Shown piece by piece: positions 271-18,623 of a stretch of DNA of 32,000 nt. The stretch is from Cereibacter sphaeroides 2.4.1 (GTDB taxonomy: Bacteria > Pseudomonadota > Alphaproteobacteria > Rhodobacterales > Rhodobacteraceae): positions 630,001 through 662,000 of the forward strand of contig NC_007493.2 of assembly GCF_000012905.2 (NCBI RefSeq). Direction: 5' to 3'. A program made the translations under genes and the position numbers. Below the pieces are notes generated by a model. It did not search any database and was not told where the DNA came from. It saw only the letters and a list, made by a program, of their open reading frames with translations. Each line of letters starts with the position of its first letter. Position 1 is the stretch's first letter.

Positions 271-290
271 CCCTCAGGAAAGGACAAGCC

Positions 291-569: not shown

Positions 570-641
570 AGGCCGGACGGTCGAGGGCTTCGGCGCTGCG
601 TCCTGCGCGCACCGCAGCGACCGGGCAAGGGCAGTTCCATC

Positions 642-1376: not shown

Positions 1377-1391
1377 GCCGGAGGGTAGATC

Positions 1392-1688: not shown

Positions 1689-1694
1689 GCGGGG

Positions 1695-2372
1695 TCACGA
1701 TCCGATCGTCACCGGGCCGCTCAGCAGAGACAGCGCGAAGACGCCGAAGAAGCAGAGTGCACCGATGACGAGGGCCAGCGCGGTCTGGCCCATGGCCTGA
1801 CGAAGGCGCGTGTTGCGGTGGATCATGAAACCGCGCGTCAGCGCCACTGCGTACCAGCCGAGCCCGAGCAGGAAGATCGCCAGCGCCGTCGGCCCGGTCC
1901 AGACGGGCTCGAGAGTGCCTAGCATCATCGCGAGGTCCAGCATCAGCACGAAGGGCACCGTCACGTAGCATTGGGCGTAGAACATCGGGCGCAGCGTCTT
2001 GCGGCTGAGGACCTGACCGGAGAGCCGCACATGCTGGATGCCGAGGAGCAGCGGGAACAGACTGAAGGCCACCGCCCGCAGGATCAGGAGGTTGCGCTGA
2101 TCGGACAGCACGCCCTCGAAGGCCGCGTCATTGTGCAAGACGCCGCGCTGCACCATGTGAGCGATCATCAGCGTCAGGAACAGGAAGATCGGCGGGCTGA
2201 GCGCCTCGGAGAACTGCTCCTCCGGCGGCCGGGTCAGCTCCTGTTCGGCGTAGGCGATCATCGCCATCGGGTGCCGCAGGCATCGCCACAGCGTCAGCGG
2301 GAAGAAGACCAGCCAGCTCACCACCTCGTAGAGCAACAACTCCGCCGAGCGGAGGAGATTCATGAAATCCAT
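1695..2372 (-). CDS. polytopic membrane protein, unknown function
   Basis: Within ORF 1695..2780 only the part from MDFMNLLRSAELLLYEVVSWLVFFPL (ATG 2372) looks like a protein, with several TM helices. The upstream 136 aa are Arg/Pro/Gly-rich junk. Confidence 0.55.
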   Translation of the reverse strand: MDFMNLLRSAELLLYEVVSWLVFFPLTLWRCLRHPMAMIAYAEQELTRPPEEQFSEALSPPIFLFLTLMIAHMVQRGVLHNDAAFEGVLSDQRNLLILRAVAFSLFPLLLGIQHVRLSGQVLSRKTLRPMFYAQCYVTVPFVLMLDLAMMLGTLEPVWTGPTALAIFLLGLGWYAVALTRGFMIHRNTRLRQAMGQTALALVIGALCFFGVFALSLLSGPVTIGS

Positions 2373-2805
2373 GGCGGGCCTGTGATCCGGGTCGGACAAT
2401 CCTAGCGCCCTCGAACCGGGTAAGTCATCCGGGCATCTTCCGCCCGCCCAGTGCGGCAGAGGAGAAGTTCGAGACGCAGCGCCCCCTGTTGCCGCCTCTT
2501 GCAGGTCGCACGGATGCTCCTCGGTCTGTCGCGGAAGAGGGGAGAGGAGATGGACTGTCTGCAGGTCGCGATGATCGACGGCCTTCCGGGGGTCATCTGC
2601 CGCATGGGCCGCGAGCTTCAGGCCACGGCTCTCGAGCTGGAGGCCGGTGGGATCGCCCGCATCAACTTCACGCGGAATCCTGACAAGCTGACCAGGGGGA
2701 GGTTGAACTGAGCTGCGGCATCTGCCCGCGTGGTCCATCCGGCCATCGGAAACCGCCCGCCGCAATCCGTCGTTGAGCAAGGGTCGCTACACAAGGAACA
2801 CCGGA

Positions 2806-3459
2806 ATGCTGAAGCCTCTCGCTGCCACCCTCCTTCTTGCGGGTCCCGCCTTCGCGTCGAGCGACGATGCCTGGGCCGAGTTTGCCGCCGAGGTCGAGAG
2901 CGCCTGTCTTGCCGCGGCCGGCGACACGCTGTCCGATGCGTTGGCGGTCGTCGATCCGTTCGGCAGTGAGAGCTACGGGCTGGCGATCGTCAGCGGGCGC
3001 ACGGCGAACGATGCTCCCGCGAGCATGATCTGCGTCCTGAACAAGCAGAGCCGTGCGGTCGAGATCGGCGGTGAGCTGGCGATCCGGGTCTCGGATCGGG
3101 GGCCAGAGCCTCTGACCGCCGAAGATACGGACAAGGCGGCCCTGACGGGCGAGCTCTTCTGCAGCTTCGAGGCCGAGGCGCGGACGCTCCTTTTCGCCGC
3201 GGGCAACGTGGCCTCGGACCAGCCGGCGGAGGCGGCCGTCAAGCTCTCGGGCCAGCCGGTGAAGCTGAGCGTCGACGGCGGGTTCGATGCCATCACCCGG
3301 GGCGCCGTGTTCACAGACCACGCCGCTACGGCGGAGGTGGCGGTGACCGGCGAGGCGACCGAAGGCGGCGAATCTCCCGCCTATCCGGCGACCCTGACCG
3401 TCCGGCCCGAAGAGGGTCCCGAGATGGCCGCCGAGGGGCTCTGGCGCTGCGGCCCGTAA
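2806..3459 (+). CDS. exported protein, unknown function
   Basis: ATG 2806 has AAGGAA about 8 nt upstream. The signal peptide is MLKPLAATLLLAGPAFA/SS. GC3 is high. Confidence 0.55.
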   Translation: MLKPLAATLLLAGPAFASSDDAWAEFAAEVESACLAAAGDTLSDALAVVDPFGSESYGLAIVSGRTANDAPASMICVLNKQSRAVEIGGELAIRVSDRGPEPLTAEDTDKAALTGELFCSFEAEARTLLFAAGNVASDQPAEAAVKLSGQPVKLSVDGGFDAITRGAVFTDHAATAEVAVTGEATEGGESPAYPATLTVRPEEGPEMAAEGLWRCGP

Positions 3460-3927
3460 GATGTCGCGTGACGGGCGGCACCTCGCGCCCGCCCTCGCTG
3501 CTGCCGCGCAGGCGCGGCCGGGGCGGTGGGGCCACGCCGCCCGCGGGGGCCCGGAAGCCGGCGCGGGTCTCGATGCGGTCGGCCGGGCCGGGCCGCATGG
3601 CCTCGGGAGCGCGGAGGGTGGCCGCCCTCCGTCGGATCGTCGGAAGCGCCAGATCGGGGCCATCTTCCCCTGCCGTTCCTTCCGCCGGACGGCCATCCGT
3701 CGCGGAGCGCCTTCCCTGTCTTCCGGGATGCGGGTGAGCGCTTCAGGGACTCGAAACAATGTCCGATCCGAGCGTCATGGCCGCTGTTGAAGCAGATCCT
3801 CTGCAACGCTATAAGAGCGGCACCACAGAAGGAGGTTGATGCACAGAGGACTCGATTGAACCGCATCCGGCGGTATCGCCCGGCAACTGAGTGCCGATCC
3901 TTTTTGCATATCTTCGTGGGAGTTCTC

Positions 3928-4380
3928 ATGGGAACCCTGAACATCCTGATCCGGCCGTATGATGCGGCAACGGATCTCAAGCGCCTGTCCGATATCTGGT
4001 TCGATGCCTCGATGGCGGCGCATCCCTTCATCGGCGAGGCGAGACTGGTGGAGCAGCGCCAGCTGATCGAGGAGGACTATCTCCCGACGGCCGAGACCTG
4101 GGTTGCCTGCCATGAGCGGGAAGCCGTCGGCTTCATCAGCCTGCTGGGCAGTTTCATCGGCGGGCTCTTCGTCGCCCCTGACCGGCAGGGCATGGGTGTC
4201 GGGCGCAAGCTCGTTTCCCATGCCCTCGCCCGGCACGGGGAACTGTCCCTTGAGGTCTATACCGCCAACGAGCAGGCGGTGCGCTTCTACAGCTCGCTCG
4301 GCTTTCGCGAGCTGTCCCGGCGCGATGTCGACGACTTCGGTTTTCCGTTCCCGAACGCGTCCCTGCACCTGAAGGTCTGA
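3928..4380 (+). CDS. GNAT-family N-acetyltransferase
   Basis: ATG 3928 lies inside the longer ORF 3526..4380. The product has the acetyl-CoA motif RQGMGVGRKL (Q/RxxGxG/A) and the ending YTANEQAVRFYSSLGF, typical of GNAT motifs A and B. Confidence 0.8.
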   Translation: MGTLNILIRPYDAATDLKRLSDIWFDASMAAHPFIGEARLVEQRQLIEEDYLPTAETWVACHEREAVGFISLLGSFIGGLFVAPDRQGMGVGRKLVSHALARHGELSLEVYTANEQAVRFYSSLGFRELSRRDVDDFGFPFPNASLHLKV

Positions 4381-4385
4381 GAGGT

Positions 4386-4410
4386 GACCGGGCAGAGGGT
4401 CTGCCCGGTC
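4386..4410 (+). terminator. perfect 10-bp GC-rich hairpin just after the GNAT stop (possible intrinsic terminator)
   Basis: GACCGGGCAG (4386-4395), loop AGGGT, CTGCCCGGTC (4401-4410), starting 6 nt after TGA 4378-4380. There is no clear U-tract (CATAAAG follows). Confidence 0.4.
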
Positions 4411-4618
4411 CATAAAGTCCCACACGGCGGGAGCATCGCTTCCGTGATGCTGGAGAGCGAAATGCAAGGCCCGCTCCGAGACCGGCGTTGCAGGCGCTGC
4501 CTCCGGGACGAACGGCGGCTCTGCATCCGGCATGGAGGATGTTTGCGCATGAAACGGGTCGGTCTCACGGCAGGGTCTGATTAGGACTCCTTCGACAGTT
4601 CATCGAAGGAAAATCGGC

Positions 4619-5371
4619 ATGCTTCTGAACGGAAAGACGATCATCATTTCTGGCGCAAGCAGCGGCATCGGGGCCGCAGCGGCGAGGCTTTTTGCGGCGG
4701 AGGGGGCGCGCCTGATCCTCGGCGCGCGTCGTGCCGCGCTGCTGGAGGAGATCACGAACGAGATCCTGGCCGGAGGTGGCGAAGCGGATTTCGTCGTCGG
4801 AGACGTCGAGGACAGCGGTTTCGCGGCAGAGCTGGTTCAAAGAGCCGAAGACCGCTTCGGCGGACTTGACGGTGCCTTCAACAATGCCGGGGTGACCGGG
4901 GAGATGTGTCCCATCCCCGACATGCCCGAAAGCAACTGGCACAAGGTGATCGCGGTGAATCTCAGCAGCGGATTTTACGCGGCAAAGCATCAGATACCTG
5001 CCATGCGCAAACGCGGCGGTGGCTCGATTGTTTTCACCTCCTCCTTCGTGGGACACACGATCGGGCTCCCCGGCATGGGCGCCTATGCCGCAGCGAAGGC
5101 GGGCCTGATCGGCATGACTCAGGTTCTGGCCGCGGAACATGGACCCGAGAAGATCCGCGTCAACGCGCTCCTCCCGGGCGGGACCATGACGCCGATGGCC
5201 GGAGAGGACGCCGGCTTTCATGAGGTCGTGCGGGGTTTCCACGCGCTGAAACGCATGGCGGATCCATCCGAGATCGCGCAGGCGGCGCTTTTCCTGCTCT
5301 CCGATCAGGCGTCATTCGTGACCGGGACCGCACTGATCGCGGACGGGGGAAATTCGATCAGCAAGCTCTAG
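4619..5371 (+). CDS. short-chain dehydrogenase/reductase (SDR) family oxidoreductase
   Basis: GASSGIGAAAA (TGxxxGxG), NNAG, a catalytic YAAAK, and the C-terminal GGNS typical of classical SDRs. AAGGAA lies upstream of ATG 4619. Confidence 0.85.
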   Translation: MLLNGKTIIISGASSGIGAAAARLFAAEGARLILGARRAALLEEITNEILAGGGEADFVVGDVEDSGFAAELVQRAEDRFGGLDGAFNNAGVTGEMCPIPDMPESNWHKVIAVNLSSGFYAAKHQIPAMRKRGGGSIVFTSSFVGHTIGLPGMGAYAAAKAGLIGMTQVLAAEHGPEKIRVNALLPGGTMTPMAGEDAGFHEVVRGFHALKRMADPSEIAQAALFLLSDQASFVTGTALIADGGNSISKL

Positions 5372-5411
5372 GGTCAAGACCCATCGATCTGCTTGAGACT
5401 TTCCCGCTTGC

Positions 5412-5612
5412 GTGATGCAGATCCCCCGAACGGACGGGGTGGTGAGGAGCGACCCTTGCCGGCTGACGGACGAGCGGATGGAGCGGCTGACGCCGTTCTT
5501 TCCGAAAAGCCATGGCAAGCCGCGCGTTGATGACCGGCGGGCGTTGAGCGGGATGATTTTCATCAATCGCGATGGCTTGCGGTGGTGCGATGCCCCGCGG
5601 GAGCAGGCGTAG
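5412..5612 (+). pseudogene. IS5-family (IS427/IS5-like) transposase, N-terminal about 60 aa only
   Basis: RLTDERMERLTPFFPKSHGKPRVDDRRALSGMIFINRDGLRWCDAP matches the conserved N-terminal block of IS5-group transposases (LtDeqWerieP.lPk..GrPRvDDRrvLsGI.f..R.G..WrDaP). The frame stops right after, where EYGP... is expected. Confidence 0.65.
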
Positions 5613-5770
5613 GGCGCGACGCCGTTCAGCCGGCAGGTTCCGATGACTGAGGCGAAGCGCGCTTGGGACTGGCTGCGCTCGTCGTGGCCGGCGAGGAGCG
5701 CGTTCCTTCGCCCGAGGGTCGGCGGCCGGATGCGGTTCTCGACGGGTTCGAGGCCGTCTCGATCCGGCCG
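5606..5770 (-). pseudogene. IS66-family transposase (TnpC), C-terminal fragment
   Basis: The minus-strand translation DGLEPVENRIRPPTLGRRNALLAGHDERSQSQARFASVIGTCRLNGVAPYA matches the conserved IS66 block (..NN.aE..iRp.alGRKNwLFaGs..G......sLi.TaKLNgvdP.aYL). It has no start codon and is cut off at about 5606, where the antisense of the IS5 fragment begins. Confidence 0.55.
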
Positions 5771-5876
5771 CCGTCGGGGACAGCCGCATCGCCCCGTCCT
5801 GCACCCGAGCGCTCCGCGCGTTCATCCCTTCGATCCGTCTACGGGACGGATCGATCCCTTCGGGACCGGTCTTCAC

Positions 5877-6140
5877 CTAAACAAAGCTGCCGCTCTTCAG
5901 CCGCTTGTCGATCAGCACGAGCCCGCTGCCGTTCCGGACCTGGTCGCCCTTCGCGCCCTCATCCAGCGCCTGAGCTACACCCTGACGGTCAGTTCGGGGT
6001 CGAGCCTCTACAACCGCGATGTCGTCCTCACCGTGCCGGACGAGGATCCGGCGCTGCGGGGTGCCGGCCTGCCGTCGCCGGAGGCGGATCTTCCCGGCAA
6101 CGATCTTGGGGATGAACCCGGCCGCGGCGTTGCCCGGGGT
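5877..6140 (-). pseudogene. IS66 Orf2 (TnpB)-like fragment, decayed
   Basis: The minus-strand frame has no start codon: ...RRILVRHGEDDIA...GAKGDQVRNGSGLVLIDKRLKSGSFV* (stop 5877-5879). The tail resembles the IS66 TnpB core (..rGD..K.L.wDG.GlcL..KRLe.G.F.W) with deletions. It is on the same strand as, and just upstream of, the TnpC fragment. Confidence 0.4.
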
Positions 6141-6584
6141 TTGTCACGCCGGCTCTCGGCGCCGCAATGCCTCCACGCGCTGCGGCTCGCCGCCACTTTC
6201 GGCACCCGCGAGACCTTTCGGCAATGTCTCGCGCCGGGCGCGGTGACCGTGATCGGAGACCTGCGTCCCGACGAGGTCAGGCCGCCCTCGGACCTGCTGC
6301 GGCTCGGGCTGCTGCCGCCGGGCTACTGGATCCACTCCCGGGCGGACCAGAAGATCGAGGGTGAGTCCCTCCTGCTGCTGTCGCCGGTGGCCGACGGCGA
6401 CTTGATCGCTCCGGCCAAGCGCCGCAGCTTCCACGAGCGTCTCCCCCAAGCCTTCGACGCGCTCCTTCTGGTGCTGATCCTCTGTCCCGAGGAAGCCAAG
6501 CCTCCGGCAGACCTCTTGCGCTCCTTGCCGGCGCTGCTGATGCTGGCGCGGGTCGATCGCTCGATGATGCTGCACTGGGGCTGA
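6141..6584 (+). pseudogene. GC-rich hypothetical gene fragment, probably 5'-truncated by the IS debris
   Basis: The 3' part of ORF 5643..6584 (…AVTVIGDLRPDEVRPPSDLLRLGLLPPGYWIHSRADQKIEGESLLLLSPVADGD…LMLARVDRSMMLHWG) has near-saturated GC3, unlike the other five frames. I recognise no family, and the true start is unknown. Confidence 0.3.
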
Positions 6585-7279
6585 CCCATGCGATCCCCGA
6601 CGACGCCGATATGGCCGACGTTCATTCCGCGCTTCCAGCCTTGAGCCGAACAAGCTGATCCTGAGGGCCAGACCGGATCCGAAGCCTAAGGAATTACACG
6701 CCGACGGCCGTTTGTGCCAGCCGAGCGAGCGGATCACAGAACCCAGATCTTAGTCAATGGCGTGGCGCTTAGAGCAGACATCACGCGATTTTGTCTTGAT
6801 GCAGGGAGCGCAGAAAAATCCCCGAAACGTAAATCTTTATGCCTCTCTGGCAGCCACTTGCGTGGCACTTGGCGGGCCCAGAAGGTGTGCGGAAAGCAAG
6901 CGCAGCCAGAGGCTTGCTCAGTAAACACCGCCTCAGCGCGCTCCTTGCAGATCAATCACTTAGACATCTACGTGTAAACGTGCTGTGCGAAGATGATGGC
7001 GATGAATTATGCCGTTCAGTGGACCCATCTGGGACGCAGGACAGGTCGATGAAGCGCCCTCCGTCACGTCGCGATGCAGACCGAAGTTCAGGCCGAAGCG
7101 GCCCATCCGGGCCGCCGGCAGCGAACGTCTGGAACCAGCCCATTGCCGTCGGTCGTGCGGAGCGCTGCAGGCCGGTGGCCCCACCGTACAGGGCGGTGAA
7201 CCGCCCGTGAGGCTGCGGCATCGCGTCCGCGGCAATCGGCGAAAGCGGCCATTCGCGACTCGCCCGTGGCGCAACGCAG

Positions 7280-7293
7280 TGCGCAGGAAGCGG
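7280..7293 (-). repeat. repeat core copy A1 (inverted): CCGCTTCCTGCGCA
   Basis: Plus strand TGCGCAGGAAGCGG is the reverse complement of 14 nt of the core found at 14781-14794. Confidence 0.8.
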
Positions 7294-7325
7294 ACCCGAG
7301 CGCCTGCAGCCTGATCGGCAGCCGA

Positions 7326-7340
7326 GCGCAGGAAGCGGCC
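7326..7340 (-). repeat. repeat core copy A2 (inverted): GGCCGCTTCCTGCGC
   Basis: Plus strand GCGCAGGAAGCGGCC is the exact reverse complement of 14779-14793. It lies 45 nt from copy A1. Confidence 0.85.
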
Positions 7341-7560
7341 GGAGGTGGCCCAAGCCAAATACACTAAAGCAATACGGCTGCCTGCTGTTGCGCATCCACC
7401 AATTCATGCACCTGCTATGTGGGGCGAACGAACAGTCGACATACTACTGAAATCTGTTTACTTACGTCTTCAAGTGAAGCGCATTGCTGGGTACTAGCCA
7501 CGTGGTCGATCACGTCAAGCCAATAAAGCGCCTCTCGAAGAAGCTGAAAAGGGGTTCTCC

Positions 7561-9057
7561 ATGACGATTCCGACATTCAAAGATATTGATTTTGGAGAAA
7601 TAGATGCGAATGCGGAGCACCTCATGGCGCTGCTTAGAAGAGGCATTCCAATGTTTGAGCGGGCCTTCGTGCCTCCGCCAATGCAGAACCTTGATCGCTT
7701 TAAGCAACATGAGAAATTTTTGATCTATGGCCAGAAGGGAACTGGGAAGTCGGCAGTTCTCAGACATCTTGAGGCGCATTCAGTTAAGGCGGGATATCGA
7801 ACGGACTATATAATTTTCAAGGACAATGTCTCAGAAGAATCGGATTTGTTTGAAAGCGGAATTCTAAGCCCCGTATCCGAGCAGGATGTCTTAAAAATAC
7901 GACATTATCTTCACATTATGAAAAGAATGCTGCTCCTTAAGTTTCTCTACTTAATGATTGCGGAGAAGGGTGAGAGAGTTGCTGGAGAGTTGGATGCGGC
8001 GGCTCCCTTCTTGGGCAAGGTCATGGAGTGGTTCAAGAATTCAACGCTTTCGGACGTATCATCTTACGCAATCCGAACAGCATTTGATTTAGCTTCATCG
8101 GTAAAGAAAGACGAACAAGAAGGATTGAGGTCGATTGACTTTGGCAAGCTCTTAAAGGGTCAAAACGATACGCTGCTGAAATCTCTCGTCGCTCAGGCTA
8201 AGAAGGAGAGCTTCAAGGCTGTAATTTTCGTTGATGAAATCCACTTCTCATTTAAGGATAACGAATCTTATAGACAAGATGCGATGTTGGTTCGCGATTG
8301 CATCGCTGCGGCTTTGAACCTTAACGAGACATTCATTCGAAACGGCGTAACCTGCTTTGTCCAAGTGGCCGTTCGGTCGGAATTTCTTGAGCACCCCGTT
8401 ATTGCACAGGCGGAAATACAAAATCAAATTCATTCATTTGGCGAGCCTATAGATTGGTCGAGTGAGAAATATGATGAAAAATCTAGGCTTTGGGGTTTTG
8501 TTTTGGCGAGAGTTAAACTCGAAGATAGCCGAGTCACCTCAAGGCAATTCTTCGATAATTATGTAGGGAATGGAAGAGCAACGTCGCTTCTTGAACATAC
8601 CTGGTCTAAGCCTCGAGATTTGATTCGCTTCTTCAACGTTGCAAAACGCCGTTATCCAAAAAAAACTAATCTCGACAAGGCTGATTTTGATAGCGTCATC
8701 AAGGAATATAGTATCGAGGCATGGCGGGAACTTAGGACAGCACTCTCATCCTTCCTAAACGAGTCCGCTCTGCTCAGGCTGGAAGAGTTCTTAGGAGAGA
8801 ATGCGCACAGAAATTATAACCATACCCCCTTCAAGAAAGAAGATCTTGTGGATTTCCTGATGGGCGTAAAGTCGGAGTTTGATAATAATTTGGATGTGGG
8901 ACTGGTTTTGGGCTTGCTATATATATTGGGCGTCCTGCAGATGCGTAGTGAGATGGCTGGCGGGACGATATTCAACGCCTACCATCGCGCAAATCTTCAG
9001 CCGAAATGGGATTGGGAGATTTATATGCACCCCGCTGTTGCGAAAAGATTTTCATAG
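7561..9057 (+). CDS. orphan P-loop NTPase of unassigned family (candidate defence/Abi protein)
   Basis: 498-aa ORF, ATG 7561 with AAAAGGGG upstream, about 40% GC. Walker A is GQKGTGKS (7729-7752) and Walker B is VIFVDEIH (8221-8244). No effector domain is recognisable. Confidence 0.85.
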   Translation: MTIPTFKDIDFGEIDANAEHLMALLRRGIPMFERAFVPPPMQNLDRFKQHEKFLIYGQKGTGKSAVLRHLEAHSVKAGYRTDYIIFKDNVSEESDLFESGILSPVSEQDVLKIRHYLHIMKRMLLLKFLYLMIAEKGERVAGELDAAAPFLGKVMEWFKNSTLSDVSSYAIRTAFDLASSVKKDEQEGLRSIDFGKLLKGQNDTLLKSLVAQAKKESFKAVIFVDEIHFSFKDNESYRQDAMLVRDCIAAALNLNETFIRNGVTCFVQVAVRSEFLEHPVIAQAEIQNQIHSFGEPIDWSSEKYDEKSRLWGFVLARVKLEDSRVTSRQFFDNYVGNGRATSLLEHTWSKPRDLIRFFNVAKRRYPKKTNLDKADFDSVIKEYSIEAWRELRTALSSFLNESALLRLEEFLGENAHRNYNHTPFKKEDLVDFLMGVKSEFDNNLDVGLVLGLLYILGVLQMRSEMAGGTIFNAYHRANLQPKWDWEIYMHPAVAKRFS

Positions 9058-9092
9058 TGGGATTGGGGGCGGCACCACGCCGTTCCTGCCAT

Positions 9093-9286
9093 GAACGGTA
9101 GCTATGGGCTGTGAGCGCCTATCGCTGCGGCTTGCCCGAGTGACCGCTTCGGCGGCAGACACCGGGAGTTCCGACCGTCGGCTGTGGGCCGCAATGGGCG
9201 GGGCTGAACAGGTCGTGCCAAGCGTTCCTTCCTGTGCGCTACGGCCGCTTCCCTGCGCATCGCCGCCATCCGAGCGTGGCGCGGCG
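9093..9286 (+). repeat. cassette 3' element, copy B (after the NTPase gene)
   Basis: GAACGGTAGCTATGGGCT (9093-9110) matches GAATGGTAGCTCAGGGCC (14720-14737) at 14 of 18 positions. The core GGCCGCTTCCCTGCGCAT (9243-9260) differs from 14779-14795 by a 1-nt indel. The next about 24 nt are roughly two-thirds identical. Copy B carries about 90 extra nt between the blocks. Confidence 0.65.
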
Positions 9287-9533
9287 AAAGACCGCAGGCA
9301 GCCCTTTACCGCCACTCATGCGAAGCGGAGCATGACGCCCAGCGTCTTCGCTGAGGGCGGAAAGCCGTCAGTCGTCAATGCAGCGTGGCAACTGTAGCAG
9401 CTGTGGGGAAGCAGTCTTTCGCGCTGTGCAGAACGAGAACCCGACAAATCGACGGGTGTGCCGCTACCTATTGACTAGGCTTCGAAATTACTGAACTTCA
9501 GGTGCGTTGGAGTAGCATGTCGGGAGAAGAACG

Positions 9534-11048
9534 ATGGCAGATCCGAGTGCGCGGTGGCACGGAGACGACTATCAGTCACGCCATTTCTGGATACATGCCG
9601 CTTCCCTCCTGGACGAGCATTCCACTCATGTAGCTGAAGTCACATTCGAAGCACACGGTCCCAAATCATTTGACGATGTCGTTGTCCGGTACGATCCCGG
9701 CCGGCCCGATCGGAGGAGCCCGGAACCAGTTCATCAGGATCACTATCAGATCAAGTGGCACACTGATCACTCGGGGCACTTCGGCTACGAGCAGCTAATG
9801 GATCCAAGGTTCATTTCGGGAACTGCCGTATCGTTGCTCGAAAGGTTGCGCAATGCGAAGCTGACTGCCCCCCCGAACTCAGCCTTCCATTTTGTCACCA
9901 CCCATGACTTGACGCAGGGCGACCCGCTGCGGGAACTTGTCTCCAATGTGGACCATTCAATCCGCCTGAAGATCCTTAAAGAGGGTAAAACCGCTAGAAG
10001 CACGATGGGAAAGGTCCGGAAAGCTTGGTGCAAACATCTCAAGGTGACGGACGAAGAGCTTTTCGACATTCTGACCGGCTTCCACATAGAGACCCGTGCC
10101 CGAAGCCTAGAGTCTTTGCGAACCGAAGTGGCCATGCGTTTCCGGACGGTTGGCCTGAACGGCCACGAGACCGATACGATTTTCCCCTATGATGGGTTCG
10201 CAAGGGAGCTCGTCGTCAAGCAAATCCGAAGTCTGGACCGCGCCAAGTTTCGGTCCCTTTGTGAGCGAGAGGGCTGGTATCTTCAGAAGCGCGCGCCCTC
10301 CAAACGCGGGGTTGCAATCCAGACATACGCGCCCCGTGCAACGCCTGCCGATCTCCTACTTGCCGCGCCGGAGAATACCTTGGTCCTGGCTGATCACTTC
10401 AACGACCGGAAATTGAAGGAGGGGCATAGCTGGGATCAGATCAGAGATGAAGTTAGAAGCTTCTTGGACGCCAAGCTACGTGAGACCGTCGATTTCCGGC
10501 TTTTCCTCGATGCACCGTCTTCGTTGGCATTCCTGTCCGGCTCCTGTCTAGGTCTGAAATCTGGAGCATCCGTCGAGCTAGTCCAGATGGGTTACGGCAA
10601 CCCGAACCGGATCTGGGATACCGCTGACGGGCGAGGTGGTCCGCTTCCCGACATAGAGACGCTTAGAGTTGGAGACGGGCAAGACATCGGCCTCGTTATA
10701 AGCCTTGCCCGCAACGCACTTTACAAAGTGCGAGAGTATCTCCAGAGAGAATTGCCGGAGGTGGGAACCGTAATACACGTCACGCCGCCCGGGGGCGCTG
10801 CGCAGGGGTCTGTGTCGGGCGGAGAGCATGCTCTTGCCATTGCGGGTCAGGCAGGTCAAGTGGTGTCGGATCTTTCTCGGCCAGGCGGTCGTACGCATAT
10901 ATTTATTGCTGCCCCGAATGCCGTAGCGTTCTTTCTTGGTCAGCAGGCTGACTCCATGGGCGTCTGCATCCCATACGAGTTCGACTTCAAAAAGGAAGTC
11001 GACGCCTCCTATCGTCCCTCCTTCGAGATTGGACTTCAGCGGCCTTGA
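9534..11048 (+). CDS. cap4: CBASS effector, Cap4-like: DUF4297 PD-(D/E)xK nuclease fused to a SAVED sensor domain
   Basis: The N-terminus WHGDDYQSRHFWIHAASLL...VTFEA...FDDVVVRY...YQIKWH fits the DUF4297 pattern. The C-terminal half has two CARF-like pseudo-repeats ending RLFLDAPSSLAFLSGSCLG and HIFIAAPNAVAFFLGQQ, as in SAVED. The gene lies directly upstream of a CD-NTase. Confidence 0.75.
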   Translation: MADPSARWHGDDYQSRHFWIHAASLLDEHSTHVAEVTFEAHGPKSFDDVVVRYDPGRPDRRSPEPVHQDHYQIKWHTDHSGHFGYEQLMDPRFISGTAVSLLERLRNAKLTAPPNSAFHFVTTHDLTQGDPLRELVSNVDHSIRLKILKEGKTARSTMGKVRKAWCKHLKVTDEELFDILTGFHIETRARSLESLRTEVAMRFRTVGLNGHETDTIFPYDGFARELVVKQIRSLDRAKFRSLCEREGWYLQKRAPSKRGVAIQTYAPRATPADLLLAAPENTLVLADHFNDRKLKEGHSWDQIRDEVRSFLDAKLRETVDFRLFLDAPSSLAFLSGSCLGLKSGASVELVQMGYGNPNRIWDTADGRGGPLPDIETLRVGDGQDIGLVISLARNALYKVREYLQRELPEVGTVIHVTPPGGAAQGSVSGGEHALAIAGQAGQVVSDLSRPGGRTHIFIAAPNAVAFFLGQQADSMGVCIPYEFDFKKEVDASYRPSFEIGLQRP

Positions 11049-11166
11049 AAGGTCGTCAGGCGACGCCCTATGCTTAGGCGATTCGCCCCCGTGCACGCTG
11101 GATAAGGTGCTTGAGGGACGGATCTGACGTATCCTATTGTTACCATTTTGGCCGGAGGAGCTCCTC

Positions 11167-12378
11167 GTGAAGCTCGAGTCGCAGTTTAGGGATTTTCTTC
11201 GTGAGATCCGCCCCACCGAAACTCAGCAAGAGGACTGGAAGGCTGGGGCGAAAACTCTGAGAACGAGGTTGGCTCAGGATCCCGACCTGAAAGACATCTT
11301 GGAAGAAACCTTCCTTCAAGGCAGCATTCGCAGATCGACCGCAATCCGTCCCAGCGGCAACAAGCGACCGGATGTGGACATTGTGGTGGTGACGAATATC
11401 GACTACACCCAGACCACACCTCAGCAGGCCATGGATCTGTTCAAGCCGTTTCTGGACAAGCACTACGGCGGTAAGTGGCGTCCGCAGGGCCGATCCTTTG
11501 GAATTGAGCTTTCATATGTCGATATGGACTTGGTGATCACCGCACTGCCCAGAACCGTGCAACTGCTCGATGAGCGTCAGGTTGCACGTTTTGCAGACAA
11601 GGACGCTCTCACCAGTATCTACAAGTCCGATGCGGCAACCTCCCTCTCGACACTGGAGGAGGACACCAGCTGGCGCCTCAACACGCGCTGGCAAGACAGC
11701 CGATCCTTCAGTGATCTTGACGGGCTGAACCGTGAGCTCGGCTCGGCTGTCAATGAAAGCCTCAAGGACGAGGTTACCGAAGAGTGGAAGTCGGAACCCT
11801 TGTGGCTCCCAGACCGAGACACCAAAAAATGGGGGCGCACACATCCCCTTCTTCAGATTTCGTGGACGGCCGAGAAAAACCGAAGGACGAACAAGACTTA
11901 TCTCCACATTGTTCGGGCCATCAAATGGTGGCGTCTGGAGATTGCGGAAAAGCTGCCCAAGTACCCCAAGGGCTACCCTCTCGAGCACATGGTTGGGCAT
12001 CTCCTCGAGGACGGGGCGGACCTGTCCACCGCTCAGGGCATCGTCCAAGTATTCGAGAGCTTCCGCGACAAGTGGCTTCTTGTAGCAAGGAACCATCAGG
12101 TCCCTGTGCTTTGTGACCACGGCGTGGCCGAGCACAATGTACTTGCCCGCCTGAGCGCCGAAGACTTCGTGGGGTTTGTCGAGGTAGTATCTAAGTTTGC
12201 AGCCCTAGCGCGCCAAGCATTCAACTCGACTGATCCTGTCGAATCCGGCAAGCTTTGGCAACAAATCTTCGGGTCTAAATTTCCACTACCCGGCCCCAAC
12301 GGCGGAGATCGAACTGGCAGCCACTTTGTCAAGCCGACCGTTGCCGCTGTGCCCCCGACCAGCGACCGCTTCGCTTGA
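11167..12378 (+). CDS. CD-NTase (SMODS-family cGAS/DncV-like nucleotidyltransferase)
   Basis: Pol-beta triad: GS 11320-11325, DVD 11371-11379, DMD 11521-11529 (QGSIRRSTAIRPSGNKRPDVDIVVV ... VDMDLVI). I prefer GTG 11167, which has GGAGGAG (11154-11160) 6 nt upstream, over the track's TTG 11137. Confidence 0.8.
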   Translation: MKLESQFRDFLREIRPTETQQEDWKAGAKTLRTRLAQDPDLKDILEETFLQGSIRRSTAIRPSGNKRPDVDIVVVTNIDYTQTTPQQAMDLFKPFLDKHYGGKWRPQGRSFGIELSYVDMDLVITALPRTVQLLDERQVARFADKDALTSIYKSDAATSLSTLEEDTSWRLNTRWQDSRSFSDLDGLNRELGSAVNESLKDEVTEEWKSEPLWLPDRDTKKWGRTHPLLQISWTAEKNRRTNKTYLHIVRAIKWWRLEIAEKLPKYPKGYPLEHMVGHLLEDGADLSTAQGIVQVFESFRDKWLLVARNHQVPVLCDHGVAEHNVLARLSAEDFVGFVEVVSKFAALARQAFNSTDPVESGKLWQQIFGSKFPLPGPNGGDRTGSHFVKPTVAAVPPTSDRFA

Positions 12379-14180
12379 AGTCGCCAAACGATGAGGAGAT
12401 CCCGGATGTTCTGCATCCGGTTACCTCCTTGCTGCGTATTGGCGTTGGTCCCGTGACTGCGCTGGAAGGTTGGAAAGAGTGGCGAAGGGGGTTTTTCTCT
12501 CTTCCGCTTGTTGCTCGTGTCACAATTTCGCCCGGCCAGAGCTTTCCTGCCGAAAGCAGATGGCACCTTGTCGTGTCCTCTGGGTCCTACCCGGCAGATA
12601 TCTTCATCTTGCCCGACAAGGTGGCAGGTCCGAACTTGACCTTTCCCCACCAGGCCGCAGTCTATTCTCGCGATGGCAAAGAACCGTGGTTGAACGGTGA
12701 GCCCTGCCTGACAGATCCGACGGCCGCGTTCGGTGATCGCCACGGATCCCGACCGGAACCCATCGCCCTTGCGGACCGGCTGATCTGGAAGGTCGAACGC
12801 TTTTCTCGCTGGTGCGAGCTAGCCGCCGCGGGTCGTCTCCATAATCCCGGTGATCACTTCGAACTCCCGCCCCTTAGCGGACATACCAATCCGATGACCA
12901 TCGGGTTCCATGAGACAGAGGGGGATCTCGTCAGATGGACCCAAGGCGCCGCTAGAGCAGGTATTGTGCACTTGGTCAGTGTATCTTCCTCTAGTAAAGT
13001 CCTTGCAGCGCAAAGTTGGCGGACAACTGAGGATGATCTCCTCCATATGCCAGATTGGGGTCTCCTGATAAAGAATCAGTCGCCGGGACAGATACCAGCG
13101 ATATGGTTCTTGCTCGAAGAGATCCCCATCATCGGTGCTTGGCAGTTGCCCCGGACATATCGGGAGCTCAGCGAGAGACTTGCAGGAGAAACGATTGACC
13201 TAGCCAAATCTTTAGCGGTGTTGGGCCAAAGCATGAGGAAAAGGAACATTAGCCGACCGGCCGTAATCATGTTCGGCTTTCCTATTCCACGGTTCTTTGG
13301 AGATGCCCCTTCGCGCATTCACTGGCTCGCAATATGTGACGTCCGCTTGACCCGAAAAAACAGCGCAAGGAATGGTTTCCGCTCCTCCGAGGCGAACCGA
13401 CAACGGTTTGATCGTGACCTCGCACGGTCAGCCAAAGCCCTTTCTTGGGCTACATGTGAAAACTGGGCACCTGATCAGATAAGGACGCGCCTGCGTAGCG
13501 CGCCGGGCTCGCAGCCGAAGATGCTGCTGATCGGTGCTGGTGCGCTTGGCAGCCAAGTTGCCGAGACGCTCATGCGTACGGGTGTGCGTGACATTGATGT
13601 GCGTGACCGAGATGAACTCGCGGCGGGAAACCTCTGCCGACACGCTCTCGATCTCACCATGATCGCTGTGAACAAGGCCGCAGCCCTAGCCGCGCAACTC
13701 AATCGCCTTCAACCTGACGGAAGAGCCCGAGGCGATGATCGGGCCTTCCCAACTGTCGGACCGGACGGGCCTGAGAATGCCGATGACTATGATGTCATCC
13801 TCGATTGCACCGGCGAGAACAAGCTGTTGCGCAGCCTTTCGATGATACCCTGGAAGTCCGAAAAACTGTTCATCTCCCTCTCTGTAAACTGGGGCGCGCG
13901 GGGTCTCATGTTCTGGTCATCTCGGGGCGCATCATTTCCGGCAGTTGATGCAACGGAACGTCTCGAGGCGCTTGCAAGAAAGTTCAGGCCCGAGGGAATC
14001 GATGAGCGGTTTGAGGGGATCGGCTGCTGGCATCCGGTCTTCCCAGCTGATGCAGCAGACATCCGAATCTGGGCCGGAATGGGGGCAAGATATGTGCTGG
14101 ACCAGATCGAGGGCGGCCCAGAGGGGTGCGGCATCTATTTCTTCAACGACGATCGGACCATCGGACTTGAGCATGGATAG
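12375..14180 (+). CDS. cap2: Cap2: E2-like / E1 (ThiF-like) fusion, CD-NTase-conjugating enzyme
   Basis: E2-like motif FPHQAAVY..DGKEPWLNGEPCL (Cys111, 12705-12707). ThiF Rossmann LLIGAGALGSQVAETLMRTGV...AAGNLCRH starts at 13521. The TTG start overlaps the CD-NTase stop (cTTGAag), and the exact start is uncertain. Confidence 0.8.
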   Translation: MKSPNDEEIPDVLHPVTSLLRIGVGPVTALEGWKEWRRGFFSLPLVARVTISPGQSFPAESRWHLVVSSGSYPADIFILPDKVAGPNLTFPHQAAVYSRDGKEPWLNGEPCLTDPTAAFGDRHGSRPEPIALADRLIWKVERFSRWCELAAAGRLHNPGDHFELPPLSGHTNPMTIGFHETEGDLVRWTQGAARAGIVHLVSVSSSSKVLAAQSWRTTEDDLLHMPDWGLLIKNQSPGQIPAIWFLLEEIPIIGAWQLPRTYRELSERLAGETIDLAKSLAVLGQSMRKRNISRPAVIMFGFPIPRFFGDAPSRIHWLAICDVRLTRKNSARNGFRSSEANRQRFDRDLARSAKALSWATCENWAPDQIRTRLRSAPGSQPKMLLIGAGALGSQVAETLMRTGVRDIDVRDRDELAAGNLCRHALDLTMIAVNKAAALAAQLNRLQPDGRARGDDRAFPTVGPDGPENADDYDVILDCTGENKLLRSLSMIPWKSEKLFISLSVNWGARGLMFWSSRGASFPAVDATERLEALARKFRPEGIDERFEGIGCWHPVFPADAADIRIWAGMGARYVLDQIEGGPEGCGIYFFNDDRTIGLEHG

Positions 14181-14691
14181 GTCTGACCGGCATTTCACAT
14201 CCGATTCTGGGGCGACGGTTACTTTAACTGCCAGAGCATTCGCGAAAATGGCCGAGTTCGCTGCCAAACGATCTCAACGCGAGACCGGAGGTATACTCAT
14301 TGGTCATTATTCAGAGGATCTGACGATCGCCAGAATAGAAGCCGCGAGTGACGAGCCGCCAGACTCGCGTGCAGGTCGGACTTGGTTCGTGCGTGGCCAA
14401 GTAGGGCTCGCCGAGATATTGCAACGGGCTTGGCGTGAGGGGCGCTACTATTTGGGTGAATGGCATTCTCACCCCGGAGCCAGCCCTGCACCGAGCGGCC
14501 CGGACTTGTCCGCCATTGCAAAGATGGCGCGTCACCCGACCTTCATTTGCCACCGTCCAATTCTGGTTATCATCGGTGGCAATTTCCATCAACAACCGCT
14601 CTTGTCCGCCACTTTGGCTGCCAAAACAGGCGTTACAACTCAGCTGCGTGCGGAACTGTACTCCAATGAGCATGAACGACTGCTTCGGTGA
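14173..14691 (+). CDS. cap3: Cap3: JAB/JAMM metallopeptidase (deconjugase)
   Basis: ATG 14173 overlaps the Cap2 stop (ATGGATAG). The JAMM motif is EWHSHPGASPAPSGPD (14458-14505), with an upstream Glu in RETGGILIG. The track's start at 13945 would overlap cap2 by 236 nt. Confidence 0.88.
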   Translation: MDRSDRHFTSDSGATVTLTARAFAKMAEFAAKRSQRETGGILIGHYSEDLTIARIEAASDEPPDSRAGRTWFVRGQVGLAEILQRAWREGRYYLGEWHSHPGASPAPSGPDLSAIAKMARHPTFICHRPILVIIGGNFHQQPLLSATLAAKTGVTTQLRAELYSNEHERLLR

Positions 14692-14719
14692 AGTTTAAGG
14701 ACACAGACGGAGGAGTATC

Positions 14720-14830
14720 GAATGGTAGCTCAGGGCCGGGCGCGCAATCTTGCTGCGCTCGGCCAAGCAGCAGCGGGGGGCCGCTTCCTGCGCATAGCGG
14801 TCATAGGAGCGCGGCCGGTTGCCGCGCGCC
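14720..14830 (+). repeat. cassette 3' element, copy C (after cap3): an imperfect palindrome containing the repeat core
   Basis: The core GGCCGCTTCCTGCGCAT is at 14779-14795. The outer arms 14739-14760 and 14807-14830 pair (GGCGCGC/GCGCGCC, AA/TT, GCGCTC/GAGCGC). An inner hairpin pairs 14767-14776 with 14781-14791. The element lies in the convergent gap between cap3 and the phage membrane-protein gene. Confidence 0.65.
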
Positions 14831-14845
14831 ATGCAGACTAGGTGT

Positions 14846-15343
14846 TCAGAGTTCGGCGGCTTGGGCCAGCCTGGACCGGACCAGCGCATCTAGCGTGTCC
14901 GTCGGCGGGCCGAGCTCCTTCAGCGCATCCGGCACCGATTTCTGAACATAGCTTGAGACAAACTCGGACGCCGCATCGGGGGCAAGCTTCCGGGCCACCG
15001 CAAGGCGTGCGGCCGTCATGACAGCCGAATGCAAGGCCTCGCGATGGCGAGCTTCGATCTGGATCCCGGTCCAGTGCTGGAACCGAACGGTTGCGAAGCC
15101 GATCAACGCGGTCAGTGCCACGCCCGCGAGATCAAGGAGGCTCGGCGCCAGGGCGGTCAGGAGGTCGCTGCCGGTCGATGCGGCGGCCGGTAGGGCGAGC
15201 ATGGCGACGATGGGGACCGAGATCGCGATGCGCGCCAGAGCGGCCAGCAGCGGCAAGCCTACCAGCTGGATGAAGGCGGACGCACAGAGAGCGAGCATGA
15301 GCACGAGGAGCGCCGGGGGCGCGAGGATGAAGATCGTGGACAT
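14846..15343 (-). CDS. membrane protein at the end of the lysis module (holin/antiholin/spanin-like role possible)
   Basis: ATG 15343 is preceded by AAGGAGAG. The product has 3-4 N-terminal TM helices and a soluble C-terminus. It starts 13 nt downstream of the endolysin gene. Confidence 0.55.
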   Translation of the reverse strand: MSTIFILAPPALLVLMLALCASAFIQLVGLPLLAALARIAISVPIVAMLALPAAASTGSDLLTALAPSLLDLAGVALTALIGFATVRFQHWTGIQIEARHREALHSAVMTAARLAVARKLAPDAASEFVSSYVQKSVPDALKELGPPTDTLDALVRSRLAQAAEL

Positions 15344-15355
15344 GGGGTCTCTCCT

Positions 15356-16165
15356 TCACAGGCGGGCGAACTGGAAGTGCATCCAGTCGCGGTTGCAGGC
15401 GCGGCCGAGGCTCGTGGCGCCGGCGGTTTCGACGATGGTCCAGAAGGGCTCGTAGGCGGGCGCGGCGAAGCTCGCGCGGTCGCGGCCCCAGCGGAGCGGG
15501 TTGCGCTCGGGGTCGAGGTCGACGGCGATGCCCCAAGCGTGCATCGAGAGGGCCGAGCCGCCGCGCATGGGCCGGTGGTTGAAGCAGCCCCCGAAGAAGT
15601 TCAGCCGCAGGCTCTCGAACTGGTCGGCGCCGTAGTGCGCCACCGCCTCGCGGAAGATCCGCGTCATGGGGGCCGCCACCAGCTTGTGGCAGCGGAAGCT
15701 CGTGATGCTCGTGTTGAGATCCCAGGCGAGCCGGAACGGGATCGGCAGCTCGACGATCCCGGCGGTGCAGTCGGGGCCGCCGGCGACGCCATAGAAGGTC
15801 GCGACAGACTCCTGCCGCGGATAGGCGCCCTGGGCATCGGCCACGGCATGGCCCGGCAGCGGCACCCGGTCGACGGCGGCCCGCACCGGCCCGGAGGCCC
15901 ACGCGGTCAGCGCCTCGCGGGTGTTCGGCCCGAGGAGCCCGTCGATCCGGCCCGGCGCATGGCCGAGCCGCGCCAGCACCGCCTGGCCGGCCGCGATCCG
16001 CTGCCGGCGGGAGGGCCAGGTGCGCCAGGGCACCGCCTCTCGCTCCAGCGCGGCCAGCGCGGCCGCCTGGGTCAGCGGCCCCGCATCGCCGTCGATGGCG
16101 CCGCGGTAGAGCCCCGCGGCCGCGAGCAGCCGCTGGATGTCGGATGTCGTCACGTCTTTCTCCAT
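15356..16165 (-). CDS. endolysin: peptidoglycan-binding domain plus M15-type (D-Ala-D-Ala carboxypeptidase-like) peptidase
   Basis: The N-terminal LLAAAGLYRGAIDGDAGPLTQAAL looks like PG_binding_1. The C-terminal SMHAWGIAVDLD...DWMHFQF gives the H..D..H zinc ligands of the M15 family. I prefer ATG 16165 to the track's TTG 16171. Confidence 0.75.
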   Translation of the reverse strand: MEKDVTTSDIQRLLAAAGLYRGAIDGDAGPLTQAAALAALEREAVPWRTWPSRRQRIAAGQAVLARLGHAPGRIDGLLGPNTREALTAWASGPVRAAVDRVPLPGHAVADAQGAYPRQESVATFYGVAGGPDCTAGIVELPIPFRLAWDLNTSITSFRCHKLVAAPMTRIFREAVAHYGADQFESLRLNFFGGCFNHRPMRGGSALSMHAWGIAVDLDPERNPLRWGRDRASFAAPAYEPFWTIVETAGATSLGRACNRDWMHFQFARL

Positions 16166-17026: not shown

Positions 17027-17329
17027 AAGGTGATTCGGCCTCACAAGGCGCCTGCCCTCGCGAGGGGTGGCAGGCAGTCTGAAAGGCGACGGACAGGCTG
17101 GCGCGGTCGCTGGTGACACATTGGCCGCGTGGTTCGGGCTGTTTGCGCAGCCCGGCCCCTGCCAGAGGGGCGTTACGGGCGCCCCGAGGAAGGGCGCGCC
17201 GGATCGGATGATCCATGATCGGGAATGGGCATCAGGGCGGCCGAGGTGCGCTCCCGGCGCGAGCTTCAGGGTGAGGTTGTGCCCCGCGTTGTGTTCCCCT
17301 AAAGTTCCCTCTCGTGGCAGGGAGGTTTC

Positions 17330-18235
17330 ATGTCGGCATCTGCAAGAAGCTCCTCCGAGGACCGCATCCCCCTTGCCGTCACGTCGATCATTCTGACGGT
17401 TCTTGCGCTGTCGCTCGGGGATGCGCTGGTCAAGATGACCAGCGGCAGCTTCGTCATCTGGCAGATCTTCGTGGTTCGGTCGCTGATCCTGCTCCCGATC
17501 CTGATGGGTGTGGCCCTGTCGCTCGGCTGCCTGCGCGTGCCGCAGGCAGGGATATGGATCGCGGTGCGGAGCCTCATGCTGATCGCGATGTGGATCTGCT
17601 ACTACTTGGCGCTGCCGAACCTGTCCCTGTCGGCCGCAGCGGCGGCCTACTACACGCTGCCCATCTTCATCACCCTGTTCTCCGCGGTGTTCGTTGGCGA
17701 CAGCATCACGGCGAAGGGCTGGGCCGCCGTTGTGCTGGGGTTCGTCGGCGTCCTGTTCATCCTTCGCCCGAGCGCGGGAGACTTCAATCTCTATGCGCTC
17801 CTGCCGTTGCTGGCGGCGATGCTCTACGCCGGGGCCATGATCTTGACGCGGACGCGTTGCCAGTCCGAGCATCCGGTCATCCTGTCGCTGGCGCTGAACC
17901 TCGGCTTCATCATCGCCGGCGGCATTGCCGCCTGCCTGATCTGGCAGCTGCCGGCAGACATGAGGCAGGGTTTCCTGCTGTCGGAATGGACGGCCATGGG
18001 GTGGAGCGAATGGGTGTCGATGGGGCTTCTGGCGGCCTCCATCCTGATCGGCAGCATCGGGGCGGCCATCGCGTACCAGAATGGCCCGCCAGCCATGATC
18101 GGCGCCTTCGACTTCGCATATGTCGGCTTTGCCGTCCTCTGGGGCATCGTGTTCTTTAACGAAACTCCCGATCTGATCGCGTCCATCGGCATGATCATGA
18201 TCGTGGGTGGCGGGATCCTGTCCCTCCGCCAGTGA
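17330..18235 (+). CDS. DMT-superfamily (EamA-like) transporter
   Basis: ATG 17330 with GGAGG at 17321-17325. The 301-aa product has about 10 TM helices with a duplicated EamA-like pattern. It is on the opposite strand to all surrounding phage genes. Confidence 0.75.
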   Translation: MSASARSSSEDRIPLAVTSIILTVLALSLGDALVKMTSGSFVIWQIFVVRSLILLPILMGVALSLGCLRVPQAGIWIAVRSLMLIAMWICYYLALPNLSLSAAAAAYYTLPIFITLFSAVFVGDSITAKGWAAVVLGFVGVLFILRPSAGDFNLYALLPLLAAMLYAGAMILTRTRCQSEHPVILSLALNLGFIIAGGIAACLIWQLPADMRQGFLLSEWTAMGWSEWVSMGLLAASILIGSIGAAIAYQNGPPAMIGAFDFAYVGFAVLWGIVFFNETPDLIASIGMIMIVGGGILSLRQ

Positions 18236-18305
18236 GCGGCAGCCTCGCTCGCCTCCTCCACTATGCGTGTGGGTGCAGATGGCCGCCGGTGGCGCTGCTC
18301 CCGTT

Positions 18306-18623
18306 CTACCCCGCGCTCCTTCCCCGCCAGAGCCGCTCCAGCATCGCCGTGGTGCCGCGCGGCCCGAGATAGGCCAGCATCGCGACGAGGCCCATCGCCG
18401 CCCGGCCGTCGAGGTCGAGGTACGAGCTCAGGGCCTCGCCGATGAAGGCCATGGCGACGAGGGCGGGGATCTCCCAGAGGAGCTCGCGGCCGAAGAAGGC
18501 GCGGCGGCGGGCGCGCACCTCGCCGGTGTGATACATGAGCCGCCCCATGGCGGCGGCGATCAGCGTGGCGATGGCCCCGCCCCAGAGCGCCGTGATGGTG
18601 TCGATCAGTCCCTTTTCCGGCAT
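18306..18623 (-). CDS. lambda S-like (class I, 3-TMD) holin
   Basis: MPEKGLIDTITALWGGAIATLIAAAMGRL... parallels, from memory, lambda S ([34 protein letters not shown]...). The 105-aa product has 3 hydrophobic segments and a basic C-terminus. AGGAG lies upstream of ATG 18623. Confidence 0.6.
   Translation of the reverse strand: MPEKGLIDTITALWGGAIATLIAAAMGRLMYHTGEVRARRRAFFGRELLWEIPALVAMAFIGEALSSYLDLDGRAAMGLVAMLAYLGPRGTTAMLERLWRGRSAG

Follow-up and report, generated by a model that had tools for sequence, protein, structure and literature searches.

Core-tipped non-coding modules at the cassette boundaries of a prophage-borne defence hotspot in Cereibacter sphaeroides 2.4.1

Prophage defence hotspots are already known, and the ways in which cassettes enter and leave them are mostly unexplained. 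A 32,000-nt stretch of the Cereibacter sphaeroides 2.4.1 genome (contig NC_007493.2, positions 630,001 to 662,000; hereafter the window, whose first base is position 1) raises this question in a concrete form. Here, a cassette encoding an NTPase is followed by a type II cyclic-oligonucleotide-based anti-phage signalling system (CBASS), and a short GC-rich sequence, the core, is found at the edges of both. What is this core, and why does it recur at the cassette junctions? In the following, its copies are designated A1, A2, B2 and C, the modules around them E, S, alpha and beta, and the related loci are given L-numbers. Our comparison identified the core as the cargo-facing tip of conserved non-coding modules. 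These core-tipped modules probably partition a prophage-borne defence hotspot into slots, the cores being recombination boundaries.

Core copies, breakpoints and flank combinations

The block lies within a prophage integrated in the 3' end of tRNA-Arg(TCT). Positions 1-6885 of the window were 100% identical to the prophage-free strain L188 (GCA_965138635.1), in which an intact tRNA-Arg(TCT) follows (L188 12252-12328). Since no more than the final 16 nt of this tRNA are left in the window, all DNA from 6886 on belongs to the integrated element. To the right of 14846 the minus-strand late phage genes are found, namely the 165-amino-acid (aa) gene, endolysin, methyltransferase, holin and tail genes, onward to the terminase. 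The region from the attachment (att) site to the last late gene is thus occupied by the NTPase cassette and the CBASS cassette (Table 1). Their gene content, an NTPase followed by Cap4, CD-NTase, Cap2 and Cap3, is that read in a first-pass annotation made from the sequence alone, which had also noted the lack of an intact integrase or transposase. The latter holds between 6886 and 14845, and an integrase was likewise absent from the hotspots of L144, L191, L195 and L209, the far prophage end lying outside the window. As to a second att site, a search of the window for the tRNA-derived 16-mer TGGCGGGCCCAGAAGG at up to 3 mismatches gave a single occurrence. In CP036419 (L209) this tRNA-Arg site is taken by another, shorter prophage.

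All four core copies described in the first-pass annotation were recovered at the same positions and in the same orientation. C and B2 are direct copies around the CBASS operon, and A1 and A2 are inverted to B2 and C. The core has a centre of about 13 nt, GCGCAGGAAGCGG, and copy C starts 88 nt past the cap3 stop at 14691. The 13-mer CCGCTTCCTGCGC is present in three exact copies (7281-7293 and 7326-7338 on the minus strand, 14781-14793 on the plus strand), whereas dinucleotide shuffles contained on average 0.26 copies at up to one mismatch and 0 of 100 shuffles reached three. Gapped local alignment of the intergenic regions B and C scored 40 (maximum among 300 dinucleotide shuffles, 29), and that of the reverse complement of A with C scored 38 (maximum, 32). 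In these alignments two CTTSCTGCGC units each were seen in C and in the reverse complement of A, and B has a second, diverged copy. The likeness beyond the core was also reproduced: 9093-9110 matches 14720-14737 at 14 of 18 positions, and the sequence after the core is 79% identical between 9252-9280 and 14787-14815. A 10-mer at 25620-25629 remained the sole further match. The view that such a recurrence is unlikely by chance stood for the window, where the shuffles support it, but not for large collections, in which the 15-mer alone is common. A pattern scan of IMG/VR with the 15-mer returned more than 119 unrelated viral contigs with single matches each, so that the 15-mer by itself is not diagnostic there. 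At about 60 to 300 nt, the true units by far exceed the core in length. The short motif GATGCGCAGG was dropped as a search marker owing to its high frequency in GC-rich coding DNA. In the window and in all relatives (L138, L140, L142, L143), the reading frame of the 165-aa gene contains a near-copy of the core with one mismatch, GCGCTGGAAGCGGA, found in the window at about 15080-15095, 240 nt before the stop codon. It is probably coincidental; otherwise it would be one more short homology to the core.

The cargo between the conserved flanks was found to be highly variable. It differed in at least eight loci, and the 165-aa gene (71-91% identical) and the att arm on its two sides were conserved. 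Septu PtuA/PtuB is carried by L144, a trypsin-like gene together with Shedu by L209 at the same tRNA-Arg site, and Vsr/Dcm restriction-modification (R-M), Gabija-like genes, HEPN-RES and DUF4365 by L191 on chromosome 2 of the 2.4.1 lineage. L195 contains a large helicase system and Hachiman, L142 a type I R-M system, L210 glycosyltransferases, and L175 from an Antarcticimicrobium genome PDC-M60 followed by a type I R subunit. The hotspot cargo is thus enriched in anti-phage systems (CBASS, Septu, Shedu, Gabija-like, Hachiman, R-M, PDC-M60). Homologues of the 165-aa gene with 59-91% identity lie beside variable cargo in many Cereibacter prophages; they are abundant in this genus, often with several per genome. 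In L199 (10498-16321), an ATCC 17029-like genome, the homologue precedes tail-fibre-like genes, HicB and an integrase that belongs to a second phage, a layout which suggests prophages in tandem or nested.

Do the cassettes of related prophages break at the cores, as the first-pass annotation had asked? The phage backbone is about 90% identical among the relatives up to the core. Compared with 11 of them, the backbone homology ended at 14809, 14797, 14788 (two), 14783, 14779 (four), 14777 and 14732, that is, inside 14777-14788 in 8 of 11 cases. Breaks were also found at A1 and A2. The window segment 7165-7296 is 81% identical to L144, and this homology stops exactly at A1. At the other copy, the metagenomic contigs L207 and L208 encode an NTPase with 90% identity, and their DNA is 87% identical over exactly 7326-9191, so that the homology to the NTPase unit starts at A2. 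To the left of its NTPase, L207 has a diverged arm with a single core at its end.

Cargo bracketed by inverted cores was seen in three loci from three genera, namely the window, L144 and L175. In the window A1 and A2 face B2 and C. L144 has an exact 18-nt inverted repeat around its 2.5-kb Septu cassette (E = 4e-6), and the two inverted cores of L175, which share about 24 nt, enclose exactly a low-GC block at 13.2-18.0 kb. In L142 the distance between two facing cores is about 43 nt, which makes an effectively empty slot.

The sequences on the two sides of the core occur in different pairs. E is combined with alpha and S with beta in the window, E with beta and S with alpha in L209, E with beta in L144, and S with alpha in L191. 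All four combinations of 5' and 3' flank are therefore present, and the switch point falls within the centre GCGCAGGAAGCGG. This apparent reassortment of the flanks is the strongest evidence for an exchange at the core that the sequence comparison provided.

Non-coding modules and neighbouring genes

Both the larger modules and the recurrence of inverted copies as an architecture, as well as the tRNA-integrated prophage, go beyond the first-pass annotation. The S module was found complete in L209, where it comprises 222 nt between two cassettes and bears a core at both ends in inverted orientation, with matching ends of 14-16 nt. Folded end to end, this copy beat 200 of 200 shuffles (z = -3.1). 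Most internal S copies are without the left end. The partial S at 9249-9384, for instance, is 86-93% identical to inter-cassette copies in L191 (two), L195, L142, L203 and L209. The att-side arms of the window, L209, L203, L136 and L140 are terminal, partly degenerate S modules. Alpha is also located 3' of the core in L209 and L191 (in both after S) and in L142, L140 and L144. Beta is homologous over about 100 nt to the sequence 3' of the E core in L209 and L144 and holds a degenerate core at 9139-9155. For the E module RNAalifold predicted a hairpin with a 10-pair stem on 9 prophages, which is kept in most of them.

S is common to prophages integrated at different tRNAs (Arg, Ser, Met), and all module copies are oriented alike with respect to the phage. 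An S-like sequence starting with TCCGCTTCCTG is also present in a Tritonibacter prophage. S modules were furthermore found on L203, a prophage of other layout on the plasmid pORIO5 of C. azotoformans. There they lie between the integrase and tRNA-Met, which indicates that the modules are not tied to the lysis end. The cargo of L203 in this segment (9655-15457) consists of a 289-aa gene and of a small open reading frame (ORF) with an 832-aa ATPase. In a search of about 1 Mb of loci, of which some 60 kb were host flanks, the S and alpha hidden Markov models matched nowhere but in prophage-end cargo regions. A BLAST search of the element against 72,556 plasmids hit one place, itself a prophage cargo region. 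There was no match to the element in the phage collection, and longer junction, arm and S patterns gave nothing in IMG/VR and the JGI metagenomes beyond one already-known contig. Conservation of the core extends to the distant genera L175 and L179, in which the sequence around it has diverged.

Several other readings of these sequences were rejected. ARAGORN found no tRNA in the window and a cloverleaf cannot be drawn, which rules out a tRNA or tRNA-like reading of GGTAGCTCAGGGCC. Rfam gave no match at the gathering threshold; the only match was at chance level (E = 4.5, among values up to 5) and elsewhere in the cassette. RNAalifold on 14 S copies from four genera yielded -2.7 kcal/mol and essentially no consensus fold, the predicted hairpins being without covariation. 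A coding function is contradicted by indels between the copies that are not multiples of three. A spurious 151-aa ORF over the arm (6952-7407) matched only itself as a protein, which supports a non-coding arm. Judged by eye, a sigma-54 promoter, a Xer/dif site and an integrase arm-type site each fitted poorly.

Table 1. Features of the hotspot in the window, in order of position
Feature	Position	Strand	Remarks
att repeat	6870-6885	+	16-nt 3' end of tRNA-Arg(TCT); same 16-mer flanks the prophage in L209
att-proximal non-coding arm	6886-7196	-	91% identical to L209 13765-14114 (different prophage, same tRNA)
Terminal S module, degenerate outer end	7092-7297	-	cargo-facing end is A1; nhmmer Sright 7118-7220, Sleft 7206-7295
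Core copy A1	7279-7295	-	7280-7293, 14 of 14; inner edge of conserved arm; 33-nt match to L145 phage end
Core copy A2	7324-7340	-	7326-7340, 15 of 15; first bases of NTPase cassette unit
NTPase cassette unit	7326-9191	+	coding sequence 7561-9057; own upstream region; 45% GC
Beta downstream module, about 100 nt	9128-9242	-	partly includes the diverged element 9093-9155 of the first-pass annotation
Core copy B2	9243-9260	+	GGCCGCTTCCCTGCGCAT, with 1-nt insertion
Partial S module, right 140 nt, without left core	9249-9384	-	nhmmer E = 2e-34
Type II CBASS cassette	9534-14691	+	Pfam and PADLOC matches
cap4 (Cap4 nuclease-SAVED)	9534-11048	+	
CD-NTase	11137-12378	+	
cap2 (Cap2 E1/E2)	12375-14180	+	
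cap3 (Cap3 JAB)	about 14173-14691	+	
Alpha downstream module, about 75 nt	14716-14778	-	nhmmer E = 3.6e-20
Core copy C	14779-14795	+	GGCCGCTTCCTGCGCAT, exact; final 17 nt of conserved phage backbone
E module	14796-14845	-	GC hairpin at about 14807-14829, between 165-aa gene stop codon and core
Last late-module gene, 165 aa	14846-15343	-	no Pfam match; conserved flank of hotspot

With respect to the genes of the block, family matches identified the NTPase as an AAA/STAND-like P-loop ATPase ('Sll1717 family' in the source naming). NTPase, cap2 or cap4 were called in pieces in the near-identical assemblies L009, L012, L014 and L187 (e.g. Cap2 with 219 aa and NTPase with 369 + 69 aa), which could be due to assembly indels or to real pseudogenisation in laboratory lineages. 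A second variable slot at about 17170-18307 is located inside the lysis module, between the holin and D12 methyltransferase genes. It contains an EamA transporter gene (17330-18235) in the window and unrelated genes in relatives, namely DUF2971 in L209 and small ORFs in L191 and L195. Its flanks are 90-94% identical among the relatives, and neither an E nor an S module was detected at this slot. A 65-aa DUF4096 fragment, the N-terminal domain of an IS5-family transposase, lies at about 5415-5612 between an SDR gene and a 313-aa gene. Since it lies in host DNA, to the left of the att site, and the strain with the empty site carries it too, it is unrelated to the island.

Recombination at the cores and alternative explanations

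The hotspot extends between the last late-module gene of the tRNA-Arg-integrated prophage and its att site. Its slots have the order core, cargo and inverted core, and S modules join several of them in a row. The end of the late operon bears E, in which a terminator-like hairpin is combined with the core. S is a spacer of about 220 nt that would divide the slots, and each core is followed by alpha or beta as alternative downstream pieces of about 75-100 nt. Cassettes could then be gained, lost and reshuffled by recombination, with crossovers presumably placed in the roughly 13-nt centre. The most likely route would be short-homology recombination between the repeated modules, for which host or phage recombination functions could use as partners the several related prophages of a Cereibacter cell, or phages that infect it together. 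Between direct copies (C and B2 around CBASS, for example) a cassette might be looped out or inserted. Inverted copies (A1/A2 versus B2 or C) would bracket the cargo and possibly allow its inversion. We favour short-homology recombination because the sites are without a recombinase, the breakpoints are clustered rather than fixed, and the several related prophages in Cereibacter genomes could serve as partners.

A number of observations weigh against this explanation. A recombinase associated with the sites was not found, and the breakpoints, although clustered, are not identical but range from 14732 to 14809. E and S share only about 25-30 imperfectly matching nt, of which two stretches of 9 each are exact in the window; this is short for RecA and keeps a site-specific enzyme in play. 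Near-identical prophages differing by a single cassette were not found among the loci compared, and an individual event is thus undocumented. The distribution of the modules is known only for about 1 Mb of loci and the 72,556 plasmids. Finally, some of the apparent reassortment of flanks could have arisen without exchange, by divergence from a single ancestral module.

Are the cores true sites of a dedicated enzyme? A phage or host recombinase might insert, excise or invert cassettes at them, as at integron attC/attI, Xer-dependent pdif modules or shufflon sfx sites. The mapping of the crossovers to the centre with all four flank combinations, the position of 5 of the 11 breakpoints at 14777-14779, the greater similarity of inverted copies within one locus than of copies from other loci, and the retention of the core in L175 and L179 despite diverged surroundings are consistent with this. 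Nevertheless we regard it as unlikely, given that a recombinase gene was absent in or beside all hotspots examined and that the other breakpoints are spread over 77 nt. Neither the R''/L''/L'/R' organisation of attC nor its GTTRRRY motif was found. An XerC/XerD site with 11-6-11 spacing is likewise missing. Such a site measures 28 nt, its XerC and XerD arms of 11 nt each being separated by a spacer of 6 nt; by eye only TGCGCATA looks like a XerC arm, and the TTATG-type XerD arm is absent. The broader option of recombination or att-like sites, raised in the first-pass annotation, was the best supported of its four, with breakpoints at the core and reassorting flanks in its favour and the missing recombinase and the spread of the breakpoints against it. 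A related proposal is that E, S, alpha and beta form a dedicated cassette capture and shuffling system of Rhodobacterales prophages, either integrase-independent or with a still-unidentified recombinase, in which the core would be the crossover site and S a portable slot divider; at present this appears improbable.

The inverted core ends of the 222-nt S of L209, its end-to-end fold and the multiple copies per hotspot recall a non-autonomous transposon similar to miniature inverted-repeat transposable elements (MITEs). Foreign DNA at the ends of prophages would have been the repeated target of such an S, with the cores as terminal inverted repeats and the bracketed cargo as DNA between neighbouring copies. 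Target-site duplications were, however, not visible at the S ends, a parent insertion sequence with such ends was not seen, and copies outside hotspots were not found in the loci and plasmids searched. Moreover, the uniform polarity of the copies, the missing left end of most internal ones and, in relatives without the inner core half, the continuity of the outer one with the backbone render a MITE quite unlikely. Similarly low is the chance that the modules serve transcription, as terminators or insulators with promoters which shield the cargo from late-operon read-through, and recur at the boundaries on account of this function. The strong conserved hairpin directly 3' of the last late gene, a predicted hairpin at the right end of S which includes part of the core, and the location of the modules always between transcription units agree with such a role. 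In E, however, the core lies outside the 10-bp GC hairpin beside copy C, T-runs are absent and a consensus terminator scan gave no match. The centre of S has no common fold, and the hairpin pairs do not covary. An insulator role alone would also leave the inverted pairs, the breakpoints and the flank reassortment at the core unexplained. The shared terminator module considered in the first-pass annotation finds partial support in the hairpin. The serial insertions into one target that it also considered fit loosely, as an accumulation of cassettes at one hotspot; repeated integration at the att site is contradicted by the single att 16-mer. A host repetitive extragenic palindromic (REP)-type repeat, a relic of tandem att integrations or mere chance is already largely refuted and carries hardly any probability. 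The motif is GC-rich, intergenic and partly palindromic (it contains TGCGCA), and chance occurrences of its 15-mer are frequent in very large collections. Against this stand the number of exact 13-mers in the window, the extended alignments that beat all shuffles, the lack of a second att-like sequence, and the absence of copies from the host DNA in L188 and other flanks. The confinement of the copies to prophage-end cargo regions in the loci searched, which extends to the sole plasmid match, speaks against the REP-like element that the first-pass annotation had listed.

Relation to known systems and implications

The hotspots of P2 and P4 phages resemble the Cereibacter hotspot in their fixed position in related temperate phages, variable and mostly anti-phage cargo, conserved flanks and presumed recombinational exchange (Rousset et al. 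2022, PMC9122126). Direct repeats, inverted repeats and terminators find no mention in the text of this study, which only speculates on homologous recombination assisted by cos ends (PMC9122126). The Cereibacter hotspot differs in being multi-slot and delimited by repeated core-bearing non-coding modules in both orientations. It shares with lambdoid phages the idea that a short conserved sequence at mosaic joints could guide homologous module exchange. Linker or boundary sequences at lambdoid module junctions are reportedly known from the modular theory of Susskind and Botstein and from HK97/HK022/HK620 comparisons. In contrast to these, the units found here are repeated within one genome, form inverted pairs around cargo and are conserved across genera.

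Sedentary integrons are known to store defence genes. Integron arrays (attI/attC, IntI) and the hotspot have independent cassettes, imperfectly conserved boundary elements and hybrid junctions in common. However, IntI was not found (the far prophage end lies outside the window), attC architecture and a GTTRRRY core are absent (GCGCAGGAAGCGG contains no GTT), the cassettes have their own upstream regions and occur in both orientations across loci, and the boundary modules measure 220-300 nt. Cargo including defence genes and bracketed by short repeated sites is also a feature of the pdif (Xer) modules of Acinetobacter plasmids and of staphylococcal cassette chromosome (SCC) composite islands (PMC11470126). 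The repeated sites are inverted in pdif and direct in SCC, and modules are shuffled between replicons (e.g. PMC11470126). The Cereibacter sites differ from both by their location inside a prophage and by the lack of an XerC/D-type site and of a Ccr-type recombinase. With MITEs and REPINs S shares its size of about 220 nt, terminal inverted repeats and an end-to-end fold, but target duplications and dispersed copies were not seen, the polarity is fixed and one end is often truncated. In its logic the multi-slot array thus resembles integron arrays and pdif modules, but it fails their defining features.

This locus shows a short core at every slot boundary, with defined polarity, inverted pairs around cargo and reassorted flanks, and with conservation of the core from Cereibacter to roseobacters. 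It provides a testable handle on the entry and exit of defence cassettes. C. sphaeroides 2.4.1 is genetically tractable, and excision, inversion and exchange at the cores could be assayed directly. The modules could also help to find new defence cargo when Rhodobacterales prophages are searched for them. Should a dedicated mechanism exist, the modules would amount to an integron-like 'defence cassette rack', and the interest of the hotspot would be high.

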